IMG/VR virus record: IMGVR_UViG_2778261643_000006
Source of the DNA: a virus
Taxonomy: Duplodnaviria > Heunggongvirae > Uroviricota > Caudoviricetes
DNA: 16,978 bases
Reading direction: 5' to 3' (one strand)
Shown: positions 3,784 to 16,942 of the stretch, one piece after another
How positions within the stretch are numbered: the stretch's first letter is position 1
Layout: every line of letters starts with the position of its first letter
The notes under the pieces: generated by a model
The model's input: the letters and a program-made list of their open reading frames with translations, nothing else
What the model was told of the DNA's origin: nothing
Databases searched by the model: none
Translations under genes and position numbers: made by a program

Positions 3784-4099
3784 TGAGTTTTACCGGCACT
3801 TCTTCTGCACTGGTTCCGGCATCTGCCCAGACAACCCCGACCAGCGGATCAGAGCCGCTGTTAGTCAGCTGAACTTTTCCGGACTTCAGATAAACCTTCT
3901 TACCCGTTTTCATGTCATCCGTTTTCAGCTTAGGCAGCATAAACACACCTTCGGTCAGGACGTCGCCTGTTTCACCCTGTGGAATATCGGTCAGCGCCAC
4001 CGCAAAAACATCACCCACCTGCACCAGGTCTCCGCTGCTGATGGCTGCACTGGCAACAATCGCCACCGTTTTTCCTTCTTCTACAAAATTCTTTGCCAT
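3776..4099 (-). CDS. Small head-associated protein, DUF2190-like (putative decoration or capsid accessory protein)
   Basis: Translation from MAKNFVEEGKTVAIVASAAISSGDLVQVGDVFAVALTDIPQGETGDVLTEGVFMLPK... has the Gly/Val-rich pattern of DUF2190 proteins found next to major capsid genes. Start re-assigned to ATG 4097-4099 with GGAG upstream; the track start at 4144 lies inside the capsid terminator. Confidence 0.55.
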   Translation of the reverse strand: MAKNFVEEGKTVAIVASAAISSGDLVQVGDVFAVALTDIPQGETGDVLTEGVFMLPKLKTDDMKTGKKVYLKSGKVQLTNSGSDPLVGVVWADAGTSAEEVPVKLNV

Positions 4100-4140
4100 A
4101 ACTGTCTCCGCACAGCCCCGTTCAGGGGCTGATTTCAGGT

Positions 4141-4161
4141 ACAAAAAAAGCCCTTACGGGC
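4141..4161 (-). terminator. Rho-independent terminator downstream of the major capsid ORF
   Basis: On the minus strand: GCCC-GTAA-GGGC hairpin followed by TTTTTTTGT, between the capsid stop (4186) and the next start (4099). Confidence 0.65.
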
Positions 4162-4185
4162 CATCAGAATTGTTGTCTGCGACGT

Positions 4186-6213
4186 TTACGCCGTACATTT
4201 CACCAGACCGCGGTGATCAACTGGCGCGACACCGGCGTCAATACGCACTTTCGTTGTCACGCCATCCACACTGAAGCCCTCCATCTGATCAATATATGGC
4301 GTATCCACACCGTTGAGATAAGCCACTTCAATCGTATCGGAGCCTTTTGACGCAGCCAGGTAGAAGGTGGTCTGGCTGTTATCATCAAGACGAGGCTCTG
4401 CAATAACGGTCGCAAAATCTTTCACCGGGTTAATAATACCGGCGTTAATGTCAGCCCCCTTGACACTTGAGGAGCGAATGACCTGGTTAGCAACAGACTC
4501 CATCGCCGTCGGTACCAGTACGAACGCAGGACGAATATTCAGATGACGCTCCCCCTCTTTCTGAACGCGCATCAACTGGCGGGCTTTATCCAGCGATGCC
4601 ACGTCCATTGCAGCGCTCTCCAGTACGTTTGCATGTTTCGCTTTATCGAACAGACTTACATTATCTGTGGAGATTTTCGGGTTAGACGTCAGAATGGCAT
4701 AAACCAGATCGGCAATGGTGGATTTCGCCGCACGGCCCAGTTTCATCGGGACATCGGTCAGCATATTCAGATCATCATTGATAATGGCCTGACGGGTGAT
4801 ACTGAACAGCTCGCCATAGGTCGCCAGTGCAATAGTGGCCTGTTTATCTCCGGTGGTGACGTATTTATATTCCGCCCCTTCACGCACCTGACGCAGAGCA
4901 CTGAAGCCACCCATACCCACACGATGGGCAATTTTAAAATCAGACAACTGACCTTTCCGCGTCCACTGTTCATAGGTTTCAGGGGCATCTTCCCAGCCCT
5001 GCAGAATGGCTTTGTTCGCAACATCCAGCAGAATATTACCGAAGTCAGACGTACTGTGTGTGAACGCCGCACCGACCATCTGCATCGGGTTATAACCGGA
5101 AACCCCAATACCCCGTTCAGTTAGTGACATACGGGCATATTCACGCAGGGTCATCCCGTTGTAGACATTATCACGTTCGGTTTTTTCAAATCCGGCACGC
5201 GCCATCAGCGCCTGGCGGATCCCGTCCCCCACAAAATTACCGTTACCGGCATAAATATGAGCCGGGGTATTTTTATTGGATGGCGTGGACTCGCGCCCCA
5301 TCTCGTTCAACAGCTTTTCACGGGCCTGCTCCAGCGAACATTCAGGATCGGCAAGACACTGGGCCTGCAGCATCTGATAACGCCCGCCAAACATGGCAAA
5401 CAGATCATTAATACCGTTTACACGCGCTTTTTGCTCTGCCAGTACCTGCGCACGGATACTGTTTTCATCCACCACGGGTGCTGCTGCCTGCACTGGCGTC
5501 CGGGAGGCTGCAGGTTCATCATCCTGTACGCGTGGAGCACTGTTGCGTGGCGGAGTAATCATGTTTCGAATGGATTCCGGCATCTTTTTAAATTCCTCTG
5601 TACGTTTTGACTGAATACATGCCATTGCCTTAACGGCTGGTGTCACCTGATCAGCAAATCCCTGTGCCAGACATTCGGCACCGGACATCCAGGTCTCATC
5701 CGCCAGCATGGCAGCAATTTCATCGGTGGTTTTCCCGGTTTTCTGTGCATAAGCGGGTAACAGAACCGCCTCAACTTTATCGAGCAGGTCGGCATAGGTG
5801 CGCATGTCCTCCGCATCACCGCCCGTAAAGCCAAATGGTTTATGAATCATCATGAAGGAGTTTTCCGGCATAATGACCGGGTTTCCCACCATCGCAATGA
5901 CCGACGCCATTGACGCCGCCACACCGTCGACATAAACGGTAATGGACGCACCATGTGTTTTCAGTGCATTAAAAATGGCGATGCCTTCAAAGACATCGCC
6001 ACCCGGTGAATTGATATGGAGATTAATGTGGGTGATATCGCCCAGTGCATTCAGATCACTGATAAACTGCTTCGCTGTAACACCCCAGAAACCAATCTCG
6101 TCATAAATATAAATATCCGCGTCACTCTGGTGACCAGCCTGCATCCTGAACCAGGAATTATTCTTCGGACTGGTCGTCGGTGTGCTGCGGCTACTGTCGT
6201 TTCGTTGCGGCAC
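4186..6213 (-). CDS. Prohead protease (ClpP/S49-like) - scaffold-like linker - major capsid protein fusion
   Basis: One uninterrupted ORF. N-terminal part (DIYIYDEIGFWG...INSPGGDVFEGIAIFNAL...ASMASVIAMVG...MIHKP) looks like a ClpP-like phage prohead protease. A charged, Ala/Gln-rich middle segment is scaffold-like. The C-terminal roughly 330 aa looks like a major capsid protein, of a family not recalled with certainty. Start proposed at GTG 6211-6213 (AAGGAGG 5 nt upstream), overlapping the portal 3' end as lambda C overlaps B; alternative ATG at 6144. Confidence 0.75.
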   Translation of the reverse strand: MPQRNDSSRSTPTTSPKNNSWFRMQAGHQSDADIYIYDEIGFWGVTAKQFISDLNALGDITHINLHINSPGGDVFEGIAIFNALKTHGASITVYVDGVAASMASVIAMVGNPVIMPENSFMMIHKPFGFTGGDAEDMRTYADLLDKVEAVLLPAYAQKTGKTTDEIAAMLADETWMSGAECLAQGFADQVTPAVKAMACIQSKRTEEFKKMPESIRNMITPPRNSAPRVQDDEPAASRTPVQAAAPVVDENSIRAQVLAEQKARVNGINDLFAMFGGRYQMLQAQCLADPECSLEQAREKLLNEMGRESTPSNKNTPAHIYAGNGNFVGDGIRQALMARAGFEKTERDNVYNGMTLREYARMSLTERGIGVSGYNPMQMVGAAFTHSTSDFGNILLDVANKAILQGWEDAPETYEQWTRKGQLSDFKIAHRVGMGGFSALRQVREGAEYKYVTTGDKQATIALATYGELFSITRQAIINDDLNMLTDVPMKLGRAAKSTIADLVYAILTSNPKISTDNVSLFDKAKHANVLESAAMDVASLDKARQLMRVQKEGERHLNIRPAFVLVPTAMESVANQVIRSSSVKGADINAGIINPVKDFATVIAEPRLDDNSQTTFYLAASKGSDTIEVAYLNGVDTPYIDQMEGFSVDGVTTKVRIDAGVAPVDHRGLVKCTA

Positions 6214-12807: not shown

Positions 12808-13014
12808 CTTCATTTTCACTTTTTTAAATCCAACGACAGACGGCTGGCATTTAAGTATTGTGAAATATTATCAAATGTAATCATCATTGATTTACAAAAG
12901 ATACATTTTGCCCCGAAAGGATTCATGTCAGAAACATCAAAAGATGATGTTCTATACTGGGAACCATGACAACACGGGCATCTAAAGTGAATATGGTTTG
13001 TAATATTGTCTACC

Positions 13015-13227
13015 TCAAAGCGCCACTACATGAACAGCGGCAGGACCTTTAGGTCCGTTCTCAATACCAAATTCAACTTCCTGATTCTCAGTTAATGTTT
13101 TGAAATCGTTGCTCTGAATTGCTGAGAAATGGACAAACACATCTTTGCTGCCATCTTTCGGCGTGATGAAACCAAAACCTTTTTCAGGGTTAAACCATTT
13201 CACTAAACCAGTCATTTTGTTAGACAT
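13015..13227 (-). CDS. cspI: Cold-shock protein CspI (CspA family)
   Basis: 70 aa, [70 protein letters not shown], with canonical cold-shock RNP motifs (KGFGFI, VFVHF). Matches K-12 Qin CspI as recalled. Confidence 0.9.
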
Positions 13228-13323
13228 AATTATTACCTTTTGAAGAAATTAGCCCTTGGGCAGAATGGTCCGAAAAAAAATATCAGAGAGAAAAACCAAC
13301 AAGGAAATCTCAAGAGGTACAAA

Positions 13324-13345
13324 TAATAAAATTATAACAATGACT
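13324..13345 (-). promoter_or_regulatory. Candidate extended -10 promoter (TGtTATAAT) for cspI
   Basis: Minus strand TG-T-TATAAT at 13339-13331, about 100 nt upstream of the cspI ATG within an AT-rich leader region. No convincing -35. Confidence 0.3.
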
Positions 13346-13590
13346 GCTTCAGATAAATTTGTAACAAACCAGAACACCATTAACGCATGATTAACCACCC
13401 ATAGCAAGGATTACTTTTGTAAAGAAAAACACAGCAATGAAAGAATAGCTTTATTTATTAATAATAACGTGTCATTCTGATTAAGACCTTTTATCTTACC
13501 CTTAAGATTTCAGGAATTTTGGCTCATGGAAGAGTCCTTTTTATTTAAATTTTACATTCCGCGATGTAAATGTTCCGATTTAATATTACC

Positions 13591-14614
<1,024 letters not shown>

Positions 14615-14618
<4 letters not shown>

Positions 14619-14926
14619 ATATATTTATGATGAGGACGCTCGTGCTTATTGGCAGGATTTTCAATCTTAAAGGAGTACTGATGCTGCAGATAAGACTCAA
14701 CTTTTTCTGACAATTTTTCTGCTACTTCCAGGAAGACTTGCCGGACGCTCCTTCTGGCTGCTGCCTCATAAAACTCCAGCGCAGCTCCTTCAACACGGTC
14801 CATGGCGACATCCAGGTCAAAAATTTCACCGTCAAAGCGTTCTTTGTCCTGTAAGGCTACAGTTACCGTAACTTTATTCTCAAAATTACGGACTCCTTTC
14901 ACAACCAGTTCATAGTCTTGAGTCAT
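14615..14926 (-). CDS. YdfR-like protein of unknown function (103 aa), inside the lysis cassette
   Basis: ATG 14924-14926 is 5 nt after the holin stop, with AGGAG inside the holin 3' end; its stop overlaps the endolysin ATG as ATGA. Length and position match K-12 Qin ydfR as recalled. No recognisable catalytic motif or hydrophobic segment. Confidence 0.7.
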
Positions 14927-14930
14927 TGGA

Positions 14931-15146
14931 TTACTCTCCTCTCGCAGCCTTACGCCTGTCTTCTTTAATCTTGAAATAAAGATTTGTCAGATACGTCAGC
15001 AGGCCAAAAACCAGGCTACCCAGCACACCGATTGCAGCCCACTGTGACGGAGTTACTTTATCGAGTAACTGCAATGCCCAGAAACCAGCATTACCCGCCG
15101 ATGTGCCATAGGCAACACCTGTTGTTAACTTATCCATTGATTTCAT
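14931..15146 (-). CDS. Class II holin / pinholin (phage 21 S21-like) with dual-start motif
   Basis: From [71 protein letters not shown] (71 aa), near-identical in pattern to P21 S21 with its Met-Lys-Ser-Met dual start. The track ORF has a 25-aa N-terminal extension, rejected. Coordinates are from ORF-track arithmetic; my base counting near 15060 was off by one. Confidence 0.85.
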
Positions 15147-15365
15147 ATCCTCACCCCGATGTACACGGATGGTGCAATATGTTTGAAAAGATCGGAGTCT
15201 ACGGGGTAGTTTTGACAGCACACGCTGTTCTCAACGGCGCTAAAGAAACATACACATTAAAAATGTGAGTAATTATTTTGAAAGAAAGTCATATATAAAA
15301 TAATAATACGAGAAATGTTTTCATATTTAGTGTACTGTATACGGCCATTTATACAGGAAAAGCCT

Positions 15366-15536
15366 ATGTCAGAACGTAAAGACTCAAAATCACGCCGTAA
15401 TTATCTCGTTAAATGTTCCTGCCCAAACTGCACCCAAGAGTCAGAACACAGTTTTTCAAGAGTACAAAAAGGTGCCCTTTTGATCTGCCCTCATTGCAAC
15501 AAAGTATTCCAGACAAATCTTAAAGCTGTAGCCTGA
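15366..15536 (+). CDS. Small zinc-ribbon protein (56 aa; two CxxC pairs)
   Basis: ATG 15366 preceded by AGGAAA; translation MSERKDSKSRRNYLVKCSCPNCTQESEHSFSRVQKGALLICPHCNKVFQTNLKAVA with CPNC...CPHC. Possibly corresponds to a small Qin zinc-binding protein, but not recognised with certainty. Confidence 0.55.
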   Translation: MSERKDSKSRRNYLVKCSCPNCTQESEHSFSRVQKGALLICPHCNKVFQTNLKAVA

Positions 15537-15594: not shown

Positions 15595-15616
15595 TAAAAA
15601 ACCCGCCTGAGCGGGT
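15595..15616 (-). terminator. Rho-independent terminator (strong on minus strand, possibly bidirectional)
   Basis: Plus strand AAAAAA-ACCCGC-CTGA-GCGGGT-TTGAG. On the minus strand the hairpin is followed by TTTTTTATTAT. Lies about 285 nt downstream of the cspB stop and about 60 nt downstream of the zinc-ribbon ORF. Confidence 0.7.
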
Positions 15617-15899
15617 TTGAGATTGTGGTGCTTTTTGTGGGAGTCATCCACTTACGCACTTTGTTTTGCCATGCCAGCAGTTAGCTTCTGCTGTAAAACT
15701 ATTCATGCAGCAAACCTGCACTTCACCACAATGGTTAGCATACTTTTCCTGATTAAGATTTTGCCAAATATGCTGGCCATTGTTTCATGTATTGGACCTC
15801 CTTAATTTTTATTAAAGAAATCCAATATTCACTACTCTGTCCGTATCTCTACTCAGGCATCAGCCTTCTTCGTTATCGTATACAGACGAGCGATGAATT

Positions 15900-16115
15900 T
15901 TAATCAGTAATGATGACATTTGCTGCTGCAGGACCTTTAGCACCACTCTCTATAGAGAAGGTAACCTTTTGACCTTCAAATAAGGTTCGATAATTATCAT
16001 TCTGAATCGCAGAAAAATGCACAAACACATCTTTACTACCATCAACAGGAGAAATAAAGCCGAAACCTTTATCAGCGTTAAACCATTTTACTAAACCAGT
16101 CATTTTATTTGACAT
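15900..16115 (-). CDS. cspB: Cold-shock protein CspB (CspA family)
   Basis: 71 aa, [71 protein letters not shown]. Divergent from cspF as in K-12 Qin. Confidence 0.9.
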
Positions 16116-16415
16116 TCTACATTCCTTAACTTGAGCCTTTCGGCATAAATGGTTTGCATAACAGAAACGACTTCGTACTTAATTGGAGAGACTCAAAGAA
16201 GGAATAAGTGAATAACACCTGAAATGAGAACTGCTTTAGTAAACTACTTCGTATATCGTCTGTTCTTCAAACCGACGCAATCATTAACGCATAGTTGAAC
16301 ATATGAAGCAATGTTTATTTTAGACATCCAGCCATCTTCAACCCCATCAAAAAACTATAGCTTTCTTCAGGAACGTGTGTATAGTGCGCCAAGTTATCAG
16401 TATTAAGGAATTTTT

Positions 16416-16666: not shown

Positions 16667-16942
16667 GTGGCTTCTGTTTCTATCAGCTGTCCCTCCTGTT
16701 CAGCTACTGACGGGGTGGTGCGTAACGGCAAAAGCACCGCCGGACATCAGCGCTATCTCTGCTCTCACTGCCGTAAAACATGGCAACTGCAGTTCACTTA
16801 CACCGCTTCTCAACCCGGTACGCACCAGAAAATCATTGATATGGCCATGAATGGCGTTGGATGCCGGGCAACAGCCCGCATTATGGGCGTTGGCCTCAAC
16901 ACGATTTTACGTCACTTAAAAAACTCAGGCCGCAGTCGGTAA
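16667..16942 (+). CDS. insA: IS1 InsA (transposition regulator; upstream frame of the InsAB' transposase)
   Basis: 91 aa, [91 protein letters not shown], matching IS1 InsA. Confidence 0.95.
16918..16924 (+). other. IS1 A6C programmed -1 frameshift motif (InsA to InsAB')
   Basis: AAAAAAC within TTAAAAAACTC near the 3' end of insA, at the position of the known IS1 frameshift site. Confidence 0.8.

Follow-up and report, generated by a model that had tools for sequence, protein, structure and literature searches.

Sequence analysis places ydfR, a DUF1327 gene, in a recombination-prone cargo slot between the pinholin and SAR endolysin genes of Escherichia lambdoid phages

Introduction

Why does a 103-codon reading frame sit between the pinholin and SAR endolysin genes of a phage lysis cassette, and does its position mean that its product acts in lysis? 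The question is raised by the window, the 16,978-nucleotide stretch of tailed-phage DNA analysed here (IMG/VR record IMGVR_UViG_2778261643_000006). A first-pass annotation, made from the letters alone, had described the frame as an extra gene of unknown function, coupled to both of its neighbours within a lysis cassette of the phage 21 type. It took this coupling to imply co-expression with the lysis proteins, and proposed a lysis-timing regulator, an endolysin partner or an unrelated passenger. We compared the gene, its product and its surroundings with phage, prophage and metagenome sequences, and set the results beside published data on the protein.

Results

We identify the reading frame at 14615..14926 on the minus strand as ydfR, which encodes a 103-aa protein of the DUF1327 family and is an accessory late-operon gene of lambdoid phages and prophages in Escherichia. 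Its product matches PF07041 with 179.9 bits against a cut-off of 25 (E 1e-53), residues 1-93 aligning with profile positions 1-93 of 93, and 102 of its 103 residues are identical to those of E. coli K-12 YdfR (b1555, UniProt P76160), from the Qin cryptic prophage. Phage Tritos carries a gene, TRITO_47, whose product is 100% identical to the window protein. The gene is already a catalogued E. coli prophage gene of an uncharacterised family, and the novelty attached to its 'unknown function' falls away: it is the annotated K-12 ydfR, for which an RNase E interaction has been published (PMC13232886). All five PHROG matches of the window protein are families of 'unknown function', and it had no match in NCBIfam, nor among the PADLOC-DB defence profiles at E <= 0.01. 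The K-12 copy has the neighbours essQ, rrrQ, rzpQ, cspI, cspB and ynfU in common with the window, and the same junctions. Qin, however, is truncated, whereas the window prophage has an intact-looking late operon that includes terminase, a lambda-type portal, a protease-capsid fusion, a cement protein, a tail tube and further tail genes.

Many E. coli chromosomes contain the 2.1-kb cassette at 100% identity, with its genes annotated as essD or essQ, ydfR, rrrQ and rzpQ. With the window gene as megablast query, a ydfR match was present in 3572 of 5426 complete E. coli genomes, about two thirds, and the full-length 103-aa class in 1789 of them, which places YdfR/DUF1327 among the commonest uncharacterised E. 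coli prophage genes. Across 185,579 species sampled at one genome per species, the family was confined to Escherichia, bar two metagenome bins. An exhaustive HMMER pass over 1.8 billion representatives returned only 57 DUF1327 clusters. Judged by this distribution, the family is small, young and host-restricted.

The two bins are a Veillonella parvula contig (L085, JAGZPX010000007.1) and a Bacillota MAG contig (L088, JAEWTL010000010.1), with ydfR cassettes 100% and 84% identical, respectively; both are almost certainly Escherichia prophage DNA placed in the wrong bin. The classical Stx1 phage H-19B (AF034975.3, L266) carries an unannotated 114-aa DUF1327 ORF at 1501-1845, starting 4 nt past S and ending 50 nt before R, and many Stx1a and Stx2c phage records likewise have no annotation beneath their DUF1327 match. 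E. coli ECGI0523 (CP178306.1, L092) has a diverged copy at 4001-4299 that is frameshifted and contains in-frame stops; ydfR therefore decays in some prophages.

Upstream of ydfR lies an S21-type pinholin gene (essQ/essD-like; 14931..15146, minus strand), whose 71-aa product, read from MKSMDKL, matches PF04971 at E 1e-33. RefSeq records annotate this product as a phage lysis protein, its Met1 and Met4 are possible dual starts, and a 96-aa GTG-started version of the ORF is probably over-extended. The holin stop codon, TAA, occupies 14931-14933 on the minus strand and is followed by four intergenic bases (TCCA) and then by the ydfR ATG at 14926, so the start is the fifth base past the stop, as first reported. 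A putative Shine-Dalgarno (SD) sequence for ydfR, AGGAG at 14936..14940 (minus strand), falls within the last codons of the holin gene, nine bases 5' of the ATG. At the other end, the ydfR TGA and the endolysin ATG share the ATGA at 14615..14618 (minus strand). The first-pass annotation was thus right that an ATG-started 103-aa ORF lies between the two lysis genes and is physically coupled to both. The SAR-type endolysin (rrrQ; 14085..14618, minus strand; 177 aa; PF00959 lysozyme, E 1e-23) has a hydrophobic N-terminus (KD19 1.67 at residue 9), and its stop overlaps by 4 nt the GTG start of an Rz-like i-spanin gene (rzpQ, DUF2514; 13591..14088, minus strand; PF10721, E 8e-39; phrog_312 'Rz-like spanin'). 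An Rz1-like ORF lies inside rzpQ at about 13641-13913, in line with the K-12 annotation rzpQ/rzoQ.

The prediction of a cytoplasmic protein without a transmembrane segment agrees with the hydropathy profile: the highest Kyte-Doolittle 19-residue mean of YdfR is 0.67, whereas the holin, endolysin and Rz proteins reach 1.7-2.2. With a pI of 5.6, YdfR is predicted to be a soluble, acidic protein. Scans of ydfR for promoter-like and terminator-like sites and for Rfam families returned nothing within the gene.

The lysis cassette is bracketed by the cold-shock genes cspB and cspI. To these belong two full-length cspA-type thermoregulator RNAs (Rfam RF01766), at 15884-16276 and 12988-13373, both on the minus strand, scoring 158.8 and 112.8 bits. 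Between cspB and the holin gene, the other strand carries a YnfU-family zinc-ribbon ORF (15315-15536, plus strand; PF23499, E 5e-31) of 73 aa, against 56 aa annotated in K-12. A terminator-like hairpin at 15599-15618 (minus strand), with eight pairs followed by a T-run, also lies between cspB and the holin gene, on the late-gene strand, and is possibly a terminator that late antitermination must read through. At the end of the window a 91-aa ORF (16667-16942, plus strand), recognised by its translation, is presumably InsA of IS1; if so, it would mark an IS1 insertion beside cspF, upstream of the late genes. Expression-database records cited with the RNase E work list the ydfR gene cluster as up-regulated under cold stress (PMC13232886).

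Alignments of the cassettes show ydfR in a recombination-prone cargo slot between the pinholin and SAR endolysin genes, the contents of which have been shuffled among phages. DNA homology between the window and other classes of DUF1327 gene is unbroken from the holin to about codon 69 of ydfR (14721) and is restored from 14628 on, 10 nt short of the endolysin ATG. This break places the slot, as present in the window cassette, at 14629..14720 (minus strand; codons ~70-99 of ydfR). The E. coli megablast matches listed with only about two-thirds gene coverage stop at this break too, at nt 200-206. As aligned, the slot has a constant left edge, 3-4 nt past the stop of the S21-type holin, where DUF1327 starts in 226 of the 228 loci with enough upstream sequence, and its right edge is the AU-rich leader of the endolysin gene.

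The distance from DUF1327 to the endolysin is a property of the class. All 81 loci of the 103-aa class have the ATGA overlap, which is confined to this class; the others are gapped, by 63 nt in the 116-aa class, by 36-42 nt in most long forms and by 28-63 nt across the non-overlap classes overall. Several other forms have gaps of 320-450 nt, which in the individually examined cases hold an opposite-strand gene. The endolysin leader of other classes is tcctgataaatatccATG, which includes the stop triplets TGA and TAA, and in its place the class of the window reads tcctcatcataaatatatATG. Our reading is that the window class lost the leader stop, so that the ORF runs on into the ATGA; because of this loss, the final residues of the 103-aa protein would be endolysin leader translated in frame.

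All cassettes with an occupied slot (L213, L142, L155, L004 and others) share an AU-rich, SD-less leader with tandem GATAAAT (gataaatcctgataaatatccATG) in the ~25 nt 5' of the endolysin ATG (14619-14640 in the window), and the window class has one GATAAAT copy and a 3-nt insertion. The leader may enhance translation, or may anchor recombination at the right-hand end of the slot.

The slot also holds larger cargo. The 174- and 206-aa forms have the tail of the window protein and then 360-580 nt of extra sequence just before the endolysin gene. A second module, which we call module B, consists of a coiled coil and a ~110-aa domain with a GRCMGYLQVAAEIE motif. Module B (L261-L263, 3001-4189; L264, 452-1009) may be joined to DUF1327 in one protein, may form its own gene 5' of a 75-aa DUF1327 gene, or may be the sole occupant of the slot between holin and endolysin, and it had no match in Pfam, NCBIfam or the PDB.

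These arrangements raise the possibility that DUF1327 is one half of an accessory system for anti-defence, exclusion or host takeover, acting with module B, opposite-strand genes or both, and that the window copy is a stripped-down remnant. The two modules are found fused (268-330 aa), adjacent in the order B then DUF1327, or singly, always in the same slot, and an opposite-strand small gene follows DUF1327 in the individually examined Stx-type and tail-cluster contexts. However, only 5 phage records contain module B, whereas 100 contain DUF1327, and the two commonest sampled classes (103 and 116 aa) lack both module B and any opposite-strand gene. Opposite-strand genes are spread over different PHROG families, some having none, the one pair that was compared gave no alignment, and those downstream of DUF1327 had no Pfam or PADLOC match. 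Beyond DUF1327 itself, the system yielded no significant PADLOC, Pfam or NCBIfam match (PDC-S11 was marginal, at E 0.003), and the structural model of module B was of low confidence and its fold search uninformative. We consider a two-module system unlikely.

Returning to ydfR as cargo of the slot, we asked how its presence bears on translation of the endolysin. Starts were scored by their pairing energy with the 16S rRNA 3' end, for which background 22-mers have a median of -2.2 and a 5th percentile of -6.1 kcal/mol. The ydfR start in the window scores -9.5 kcal/mol and the DUF1327 starts of other classes -8.5 to -9.4 kcal/mol. Endolysin starts directly after the holin score -8.5 (phage 24B) and -7.1 kcal/mol (phage 434), the endolysin start of the window +1.1 kcal/mol, and those of the other DUF1327-bearing classes scored +0.3 to -2.8 kcal/mol. 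In the 933W-like phage 24B, whose R protein is 89% identical to the window endolysin, R starts 4 nt past the S stop, exactly where ydfR starts in the window, and the holin-embedded SD that serves ydfR in the window there serves the endolysin. These energies argue that whichever gene occupies the slot captures the SD in the holin 3' end, and that the endolysin is left with an AU-rich leader lacking one.

Since ydfR takes the SD and the endolysin has none, endolysin translation probably depends on ribosomes that terminate at ydfR. We therefore judge it fairly probable that in the 103-aa class the endolysin is coupled to ydfR through the ATGA. The translational coupling proposed in the first-pass annotation is in this respect supported by both the SD-less endolysin and the overlap. 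Against it, the same SD-less leader works in other classes across gaps of 28-63 nt, so the endolysin is evidently translatable without overlap. A practical consequence is that deleting or marking ydfR would be likely to alter endolysin expression, because the slot occupant takes the endolysin's ribosome-binding site, and such an effect could be mistaken for a ydfR phenotype.

ydfR does not belong to the lysis core: phages with this holin type mostly lack it, and its distant homologues lie among tail genes. The S21-type holin was found in 438 phage records and DUF1327 in about 100, and phages 434, cdtI and 24B have no DUF1327 gene; relative to a minimal S-R-Rz cassette the gene is extra, as first described. 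In these relatives, rather than in phage 21 itself, we also see the contiguous arrangement that had been ascribed to phage 21, S and R overlapping by 1 nt in 434 and cdtI. YdfR has no transmembrane or SAR segment, no muralytic domain and no lipoprotein or spanin signature, DUF1327 being its sole Pfam match, and it lacks the consistent presence expected of a lysis protein.

Genes of 76 aa with DUF1327 were found between the tail genes gpM/gpL and gpK of lambda-like siphophages from metagenomes (L093, 511-966; L094, 4001-4821; L095, 3788-4607). Downstream of each lie opposite-strand genes of 70 to 182 aa that belong to no known family. Matches to the tail-cluster locus among phage records reached no more than ~65-68% identity across roughly a tenth of its length, and an IMG/VR search with the tail-cluster variant P0159 returned no loci.

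The common denominator of these contexts is the late operon, not lysis. The step from coupling to a lysis role is not supported: the upstream junction is a slot in which the next gene uses the holin-embedded SD, and in 24B the endolysin itself takes that slot. Could YdfR nevertheless be a regulator of lysis timing or a lysis partner that binds the basic cytoplasmic C-tail of the pinholin, or the nascent SAR endolysin? Such a role would suit an acidic protein meeting a basic holin C-terminus, co-translation with the lysis genes, and the position of the gene directly after the S21-type holin in Escherichia phages (226 of 228 loci). Additionally, the envelope screen of Paradis-Bleau et al. is cited as having identified ydfR (PMC13232886). 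However, the main text of Paradis-Bleau 2014 does not mention ydfR, the holin linkage is explained by a shared DNA block with its embedded SD, the gene is optional in S21-type cassettes (100 of 438 records), and the distant homologues have no lysis genes nearby. The passages of Pinto et al. 2021 on the lytic cassettes of Stx phages do not describe the slot. In a survival-gene screen, ydfR was reported with a 3-fold higher streptomycin MIC (PMC12924614). Phenotypes of marked ydfR deletions, including any in the envelope, could act through the downstream endolysin. A direct part in lysis seems improbable to us, and among the three options originally offered the unrelated passenger fits best. That the ORF is ydfR and that it is a passenger is, taken jointly, highly probable.

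A passenger may still encode a functional protein, and conservation points to its N-terminal part. Family alignments show conservation ending near residue 78, with tails that are unrelated between classes, and DUF1327 gene lengths span 103 to 330 aa. Two distant stand-alone members of only 76 aa (P0157 and P0159; ~31% identity, confirmed by Pfam and PHROG) define the conserved unit, which in the window corresponds to codons 1-77 (14696..14926, minus strand). AlphaFold2, run with a 24-sequence alignment, modelled YdfR with a mean pLDDT of 80.8 as antiparallel strands at 5-14, 18-27 and 34-43 followed by one long helix at 50-84; block-mean pLDDT is 83-96 across residues 11-80 and below 50 for residues 93-103. 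The most conserved residues are Y5, E6, L7, V9 and K10, with G47, L50, E51, Y53, E54, A55 and A57 at the start of the helix, and the net charge of the core, counted from sequences, is about -3 to -6 in every class. Conservation thus delimits an acidic core of ~76 residues, modelled as three beta strands and a helix, which we infer to be the functional part. The last ~26 residues form a class-specific tail, its end predicted to be disordered, part of which is translated endolysin leader.

Between the 103-aa and 116-aa classes, core dN/dS is 0.25-0.30 at a dS of about 0.4, which indicates moderate constraint on a real protein. The tail of the 103-aa class has 1 synonymous and 2-3 nonsynonymous substitutions, too few for a dN/dS reading. 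As the ORF combines a full-length DUF1327 match, a strong SD energy and this dN/dS, we take ydfR to be a genuine protein-coding gene rather than a chance ORF.

Structural relatives of the core were not evident. PDB sequence searches with the YdfR protein and with a long-form profile gave nothing meaningful, Foldseek of the YdfR model against viral structures gave nothing at E <= 1e-3, and fold searches with YdfR gave weak results, also with regard to double-stranded RNA-binding domains and HPF-like beta-beta-beta-alpha RNA-binding folds. A profile-profile comparison, A2 against A4, was uninformative because A2 includes a long-form fusion sequence. P0135, a 3128-aa protein of near-identical ~260-aa repeats, has six matches to the DUF1327 core at ~30% identity (for example, IFELDVSQAEIVGSELEFFTNAA against IFDLDVAMDRVEGAALEFYEAAA). 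We set it aside as uninformative, since its E-value sums six near-identical weak matches and is probably inflated by the repeats; one repeat gives a pairwise E of 3e-7.

Constraint on the core also bears on whether ydfR matters mainly in cis, as a translated spacer that sets the amount of endolysin while its protein is near-functionless, or as decaying prophage cargo. In keeping with this, an occupied slot always leaves the endolysin with no SD, the tail is partly endolysin leader in frame after loss of a stop codon, very close ydfR alleles differ mostly by nonsynonymous changes, one genome holds the frameshifted copy described above, and overexpression is reported to be almost without phenotype (PMC13232886). 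Yet the core is under purifying selection between classes, its fold is confidently predicted, homologues at ~31% identity persist in an unrelated genomic context, and the gene is kept in the viable phages Tritos and mEp460. We regard a mainly cis-acting or decaying ORF as very unlikely.

Published data suggest a partner for YdfR. Gopel et al. 2026 (PMC13232886) report that a two-hybrid screen baited with RNase G yielded a YdfR fragment, residues 1-72, three times, and that this fragment gave a stronger signal when paired with RNase E constructs. The full-length protein was positive with only one Rne construct, Rne1-597, and Strep-YdfR from lysate co-purified Rne1-598 together with DNase-resistant nucleic acid (PMC13232886). 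According to the same report, overexpression of YdfR caused no growth defect, and RNA-seq on overexpression revealed few transcript changes, mostly shared with other overproducers (PMC13232886), a result that so far lends no support to an effect on RNase E-dependent RNA decay.

Residues 1-72 coincide with the conserved core, and the RNase interaction is thereby more credible as a property of the family. Overexpression without phenotype disfavours global inhibition of an essential enzyme. The acidic charge of the core suits protein-protein contact better than direct RNA binding. The link to RNase E comes from one study (PMC13232886), and the co-purification from lysate could be RNA-bridged. We consider a role of YdfR at RNase E possible rather than probable.

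Discussion

We have identified the extra gene of this cassette as ydfR and placed it in a slot whose contents vary among phages and whose left junction supplies a ready-made ribosome-binding site. The question raised by its position can be answered in part: proximity to the lysis genes is a feature of the slot, and the gene is an optional member of the late operon.

Our best explanation is a composite one, and we hold it tentatively. ydfR would be an optional passenger in the cargo slot, expressed late, the conserved core of which would bind a host factor late in the lytic cycle. The leading candidates are RNase E, through its catalytic N-terminal half, and the paralogous RNase G, along with RNA, and YdfR may then act as a modulator or adaptor of RNA processing and not as a global inhibitor. 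At the same time, ydfR would reorganise translation of the endolysin, by taking the strong SD that otherwise serves it, and ribosomes terminating at the ydfR UGA would restart at the overlapping endolysin AUG.

[quoted passage not shown] We give this extension little weight. Should the RNase E link hold during induction, lambdoid and Stx phages would join T4, T7 and phiKZ in manipulating the RNA-decay hub, and the link, if true, could bear on late gene expression and hence on toxin release.

Phage proteins that act on RNase E offer parallels. Srd of phage T4, a small protein, is reported to contact the catalytic half of RNase E, as is YdfR (Qi et al. 2015, cited in PMC13232886). However, Srd belongs to a virulent phage and is described as stimulating host mRNA decay, whereas YdfR is encoded in a temperate late operon and has almost no effect on the transcriptome; the comparison is by description. 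Dip (gp37) of phage phiKZ likewise targets RNase E; it is described as binding and inhibiting the host RNA degradation machinery and as associating with two RNA-binding sites there (PMC4980113). YdfR is set apart from Dip, again by description, in that its reported interaction is with the catalytic half of RNase E and in that it has no inhibitory phenotype.

As a genomic element, ydfR resembles the morons, such as bor and lom of lambda and the ant gene of 933W-like phages, in being optional late-gene cargo with mosaic boundaries; in the Stx phages that we examined, ant lies between R and Rz. Classical morons bring a promoter and a terminator with them and are expressed in the lysogen. ydfR differs from them in that our scan found no promoter-like or terminator-like site and in that it is co-oriented with the lysis genes and, as its junctions suggest, translationally linked to them.
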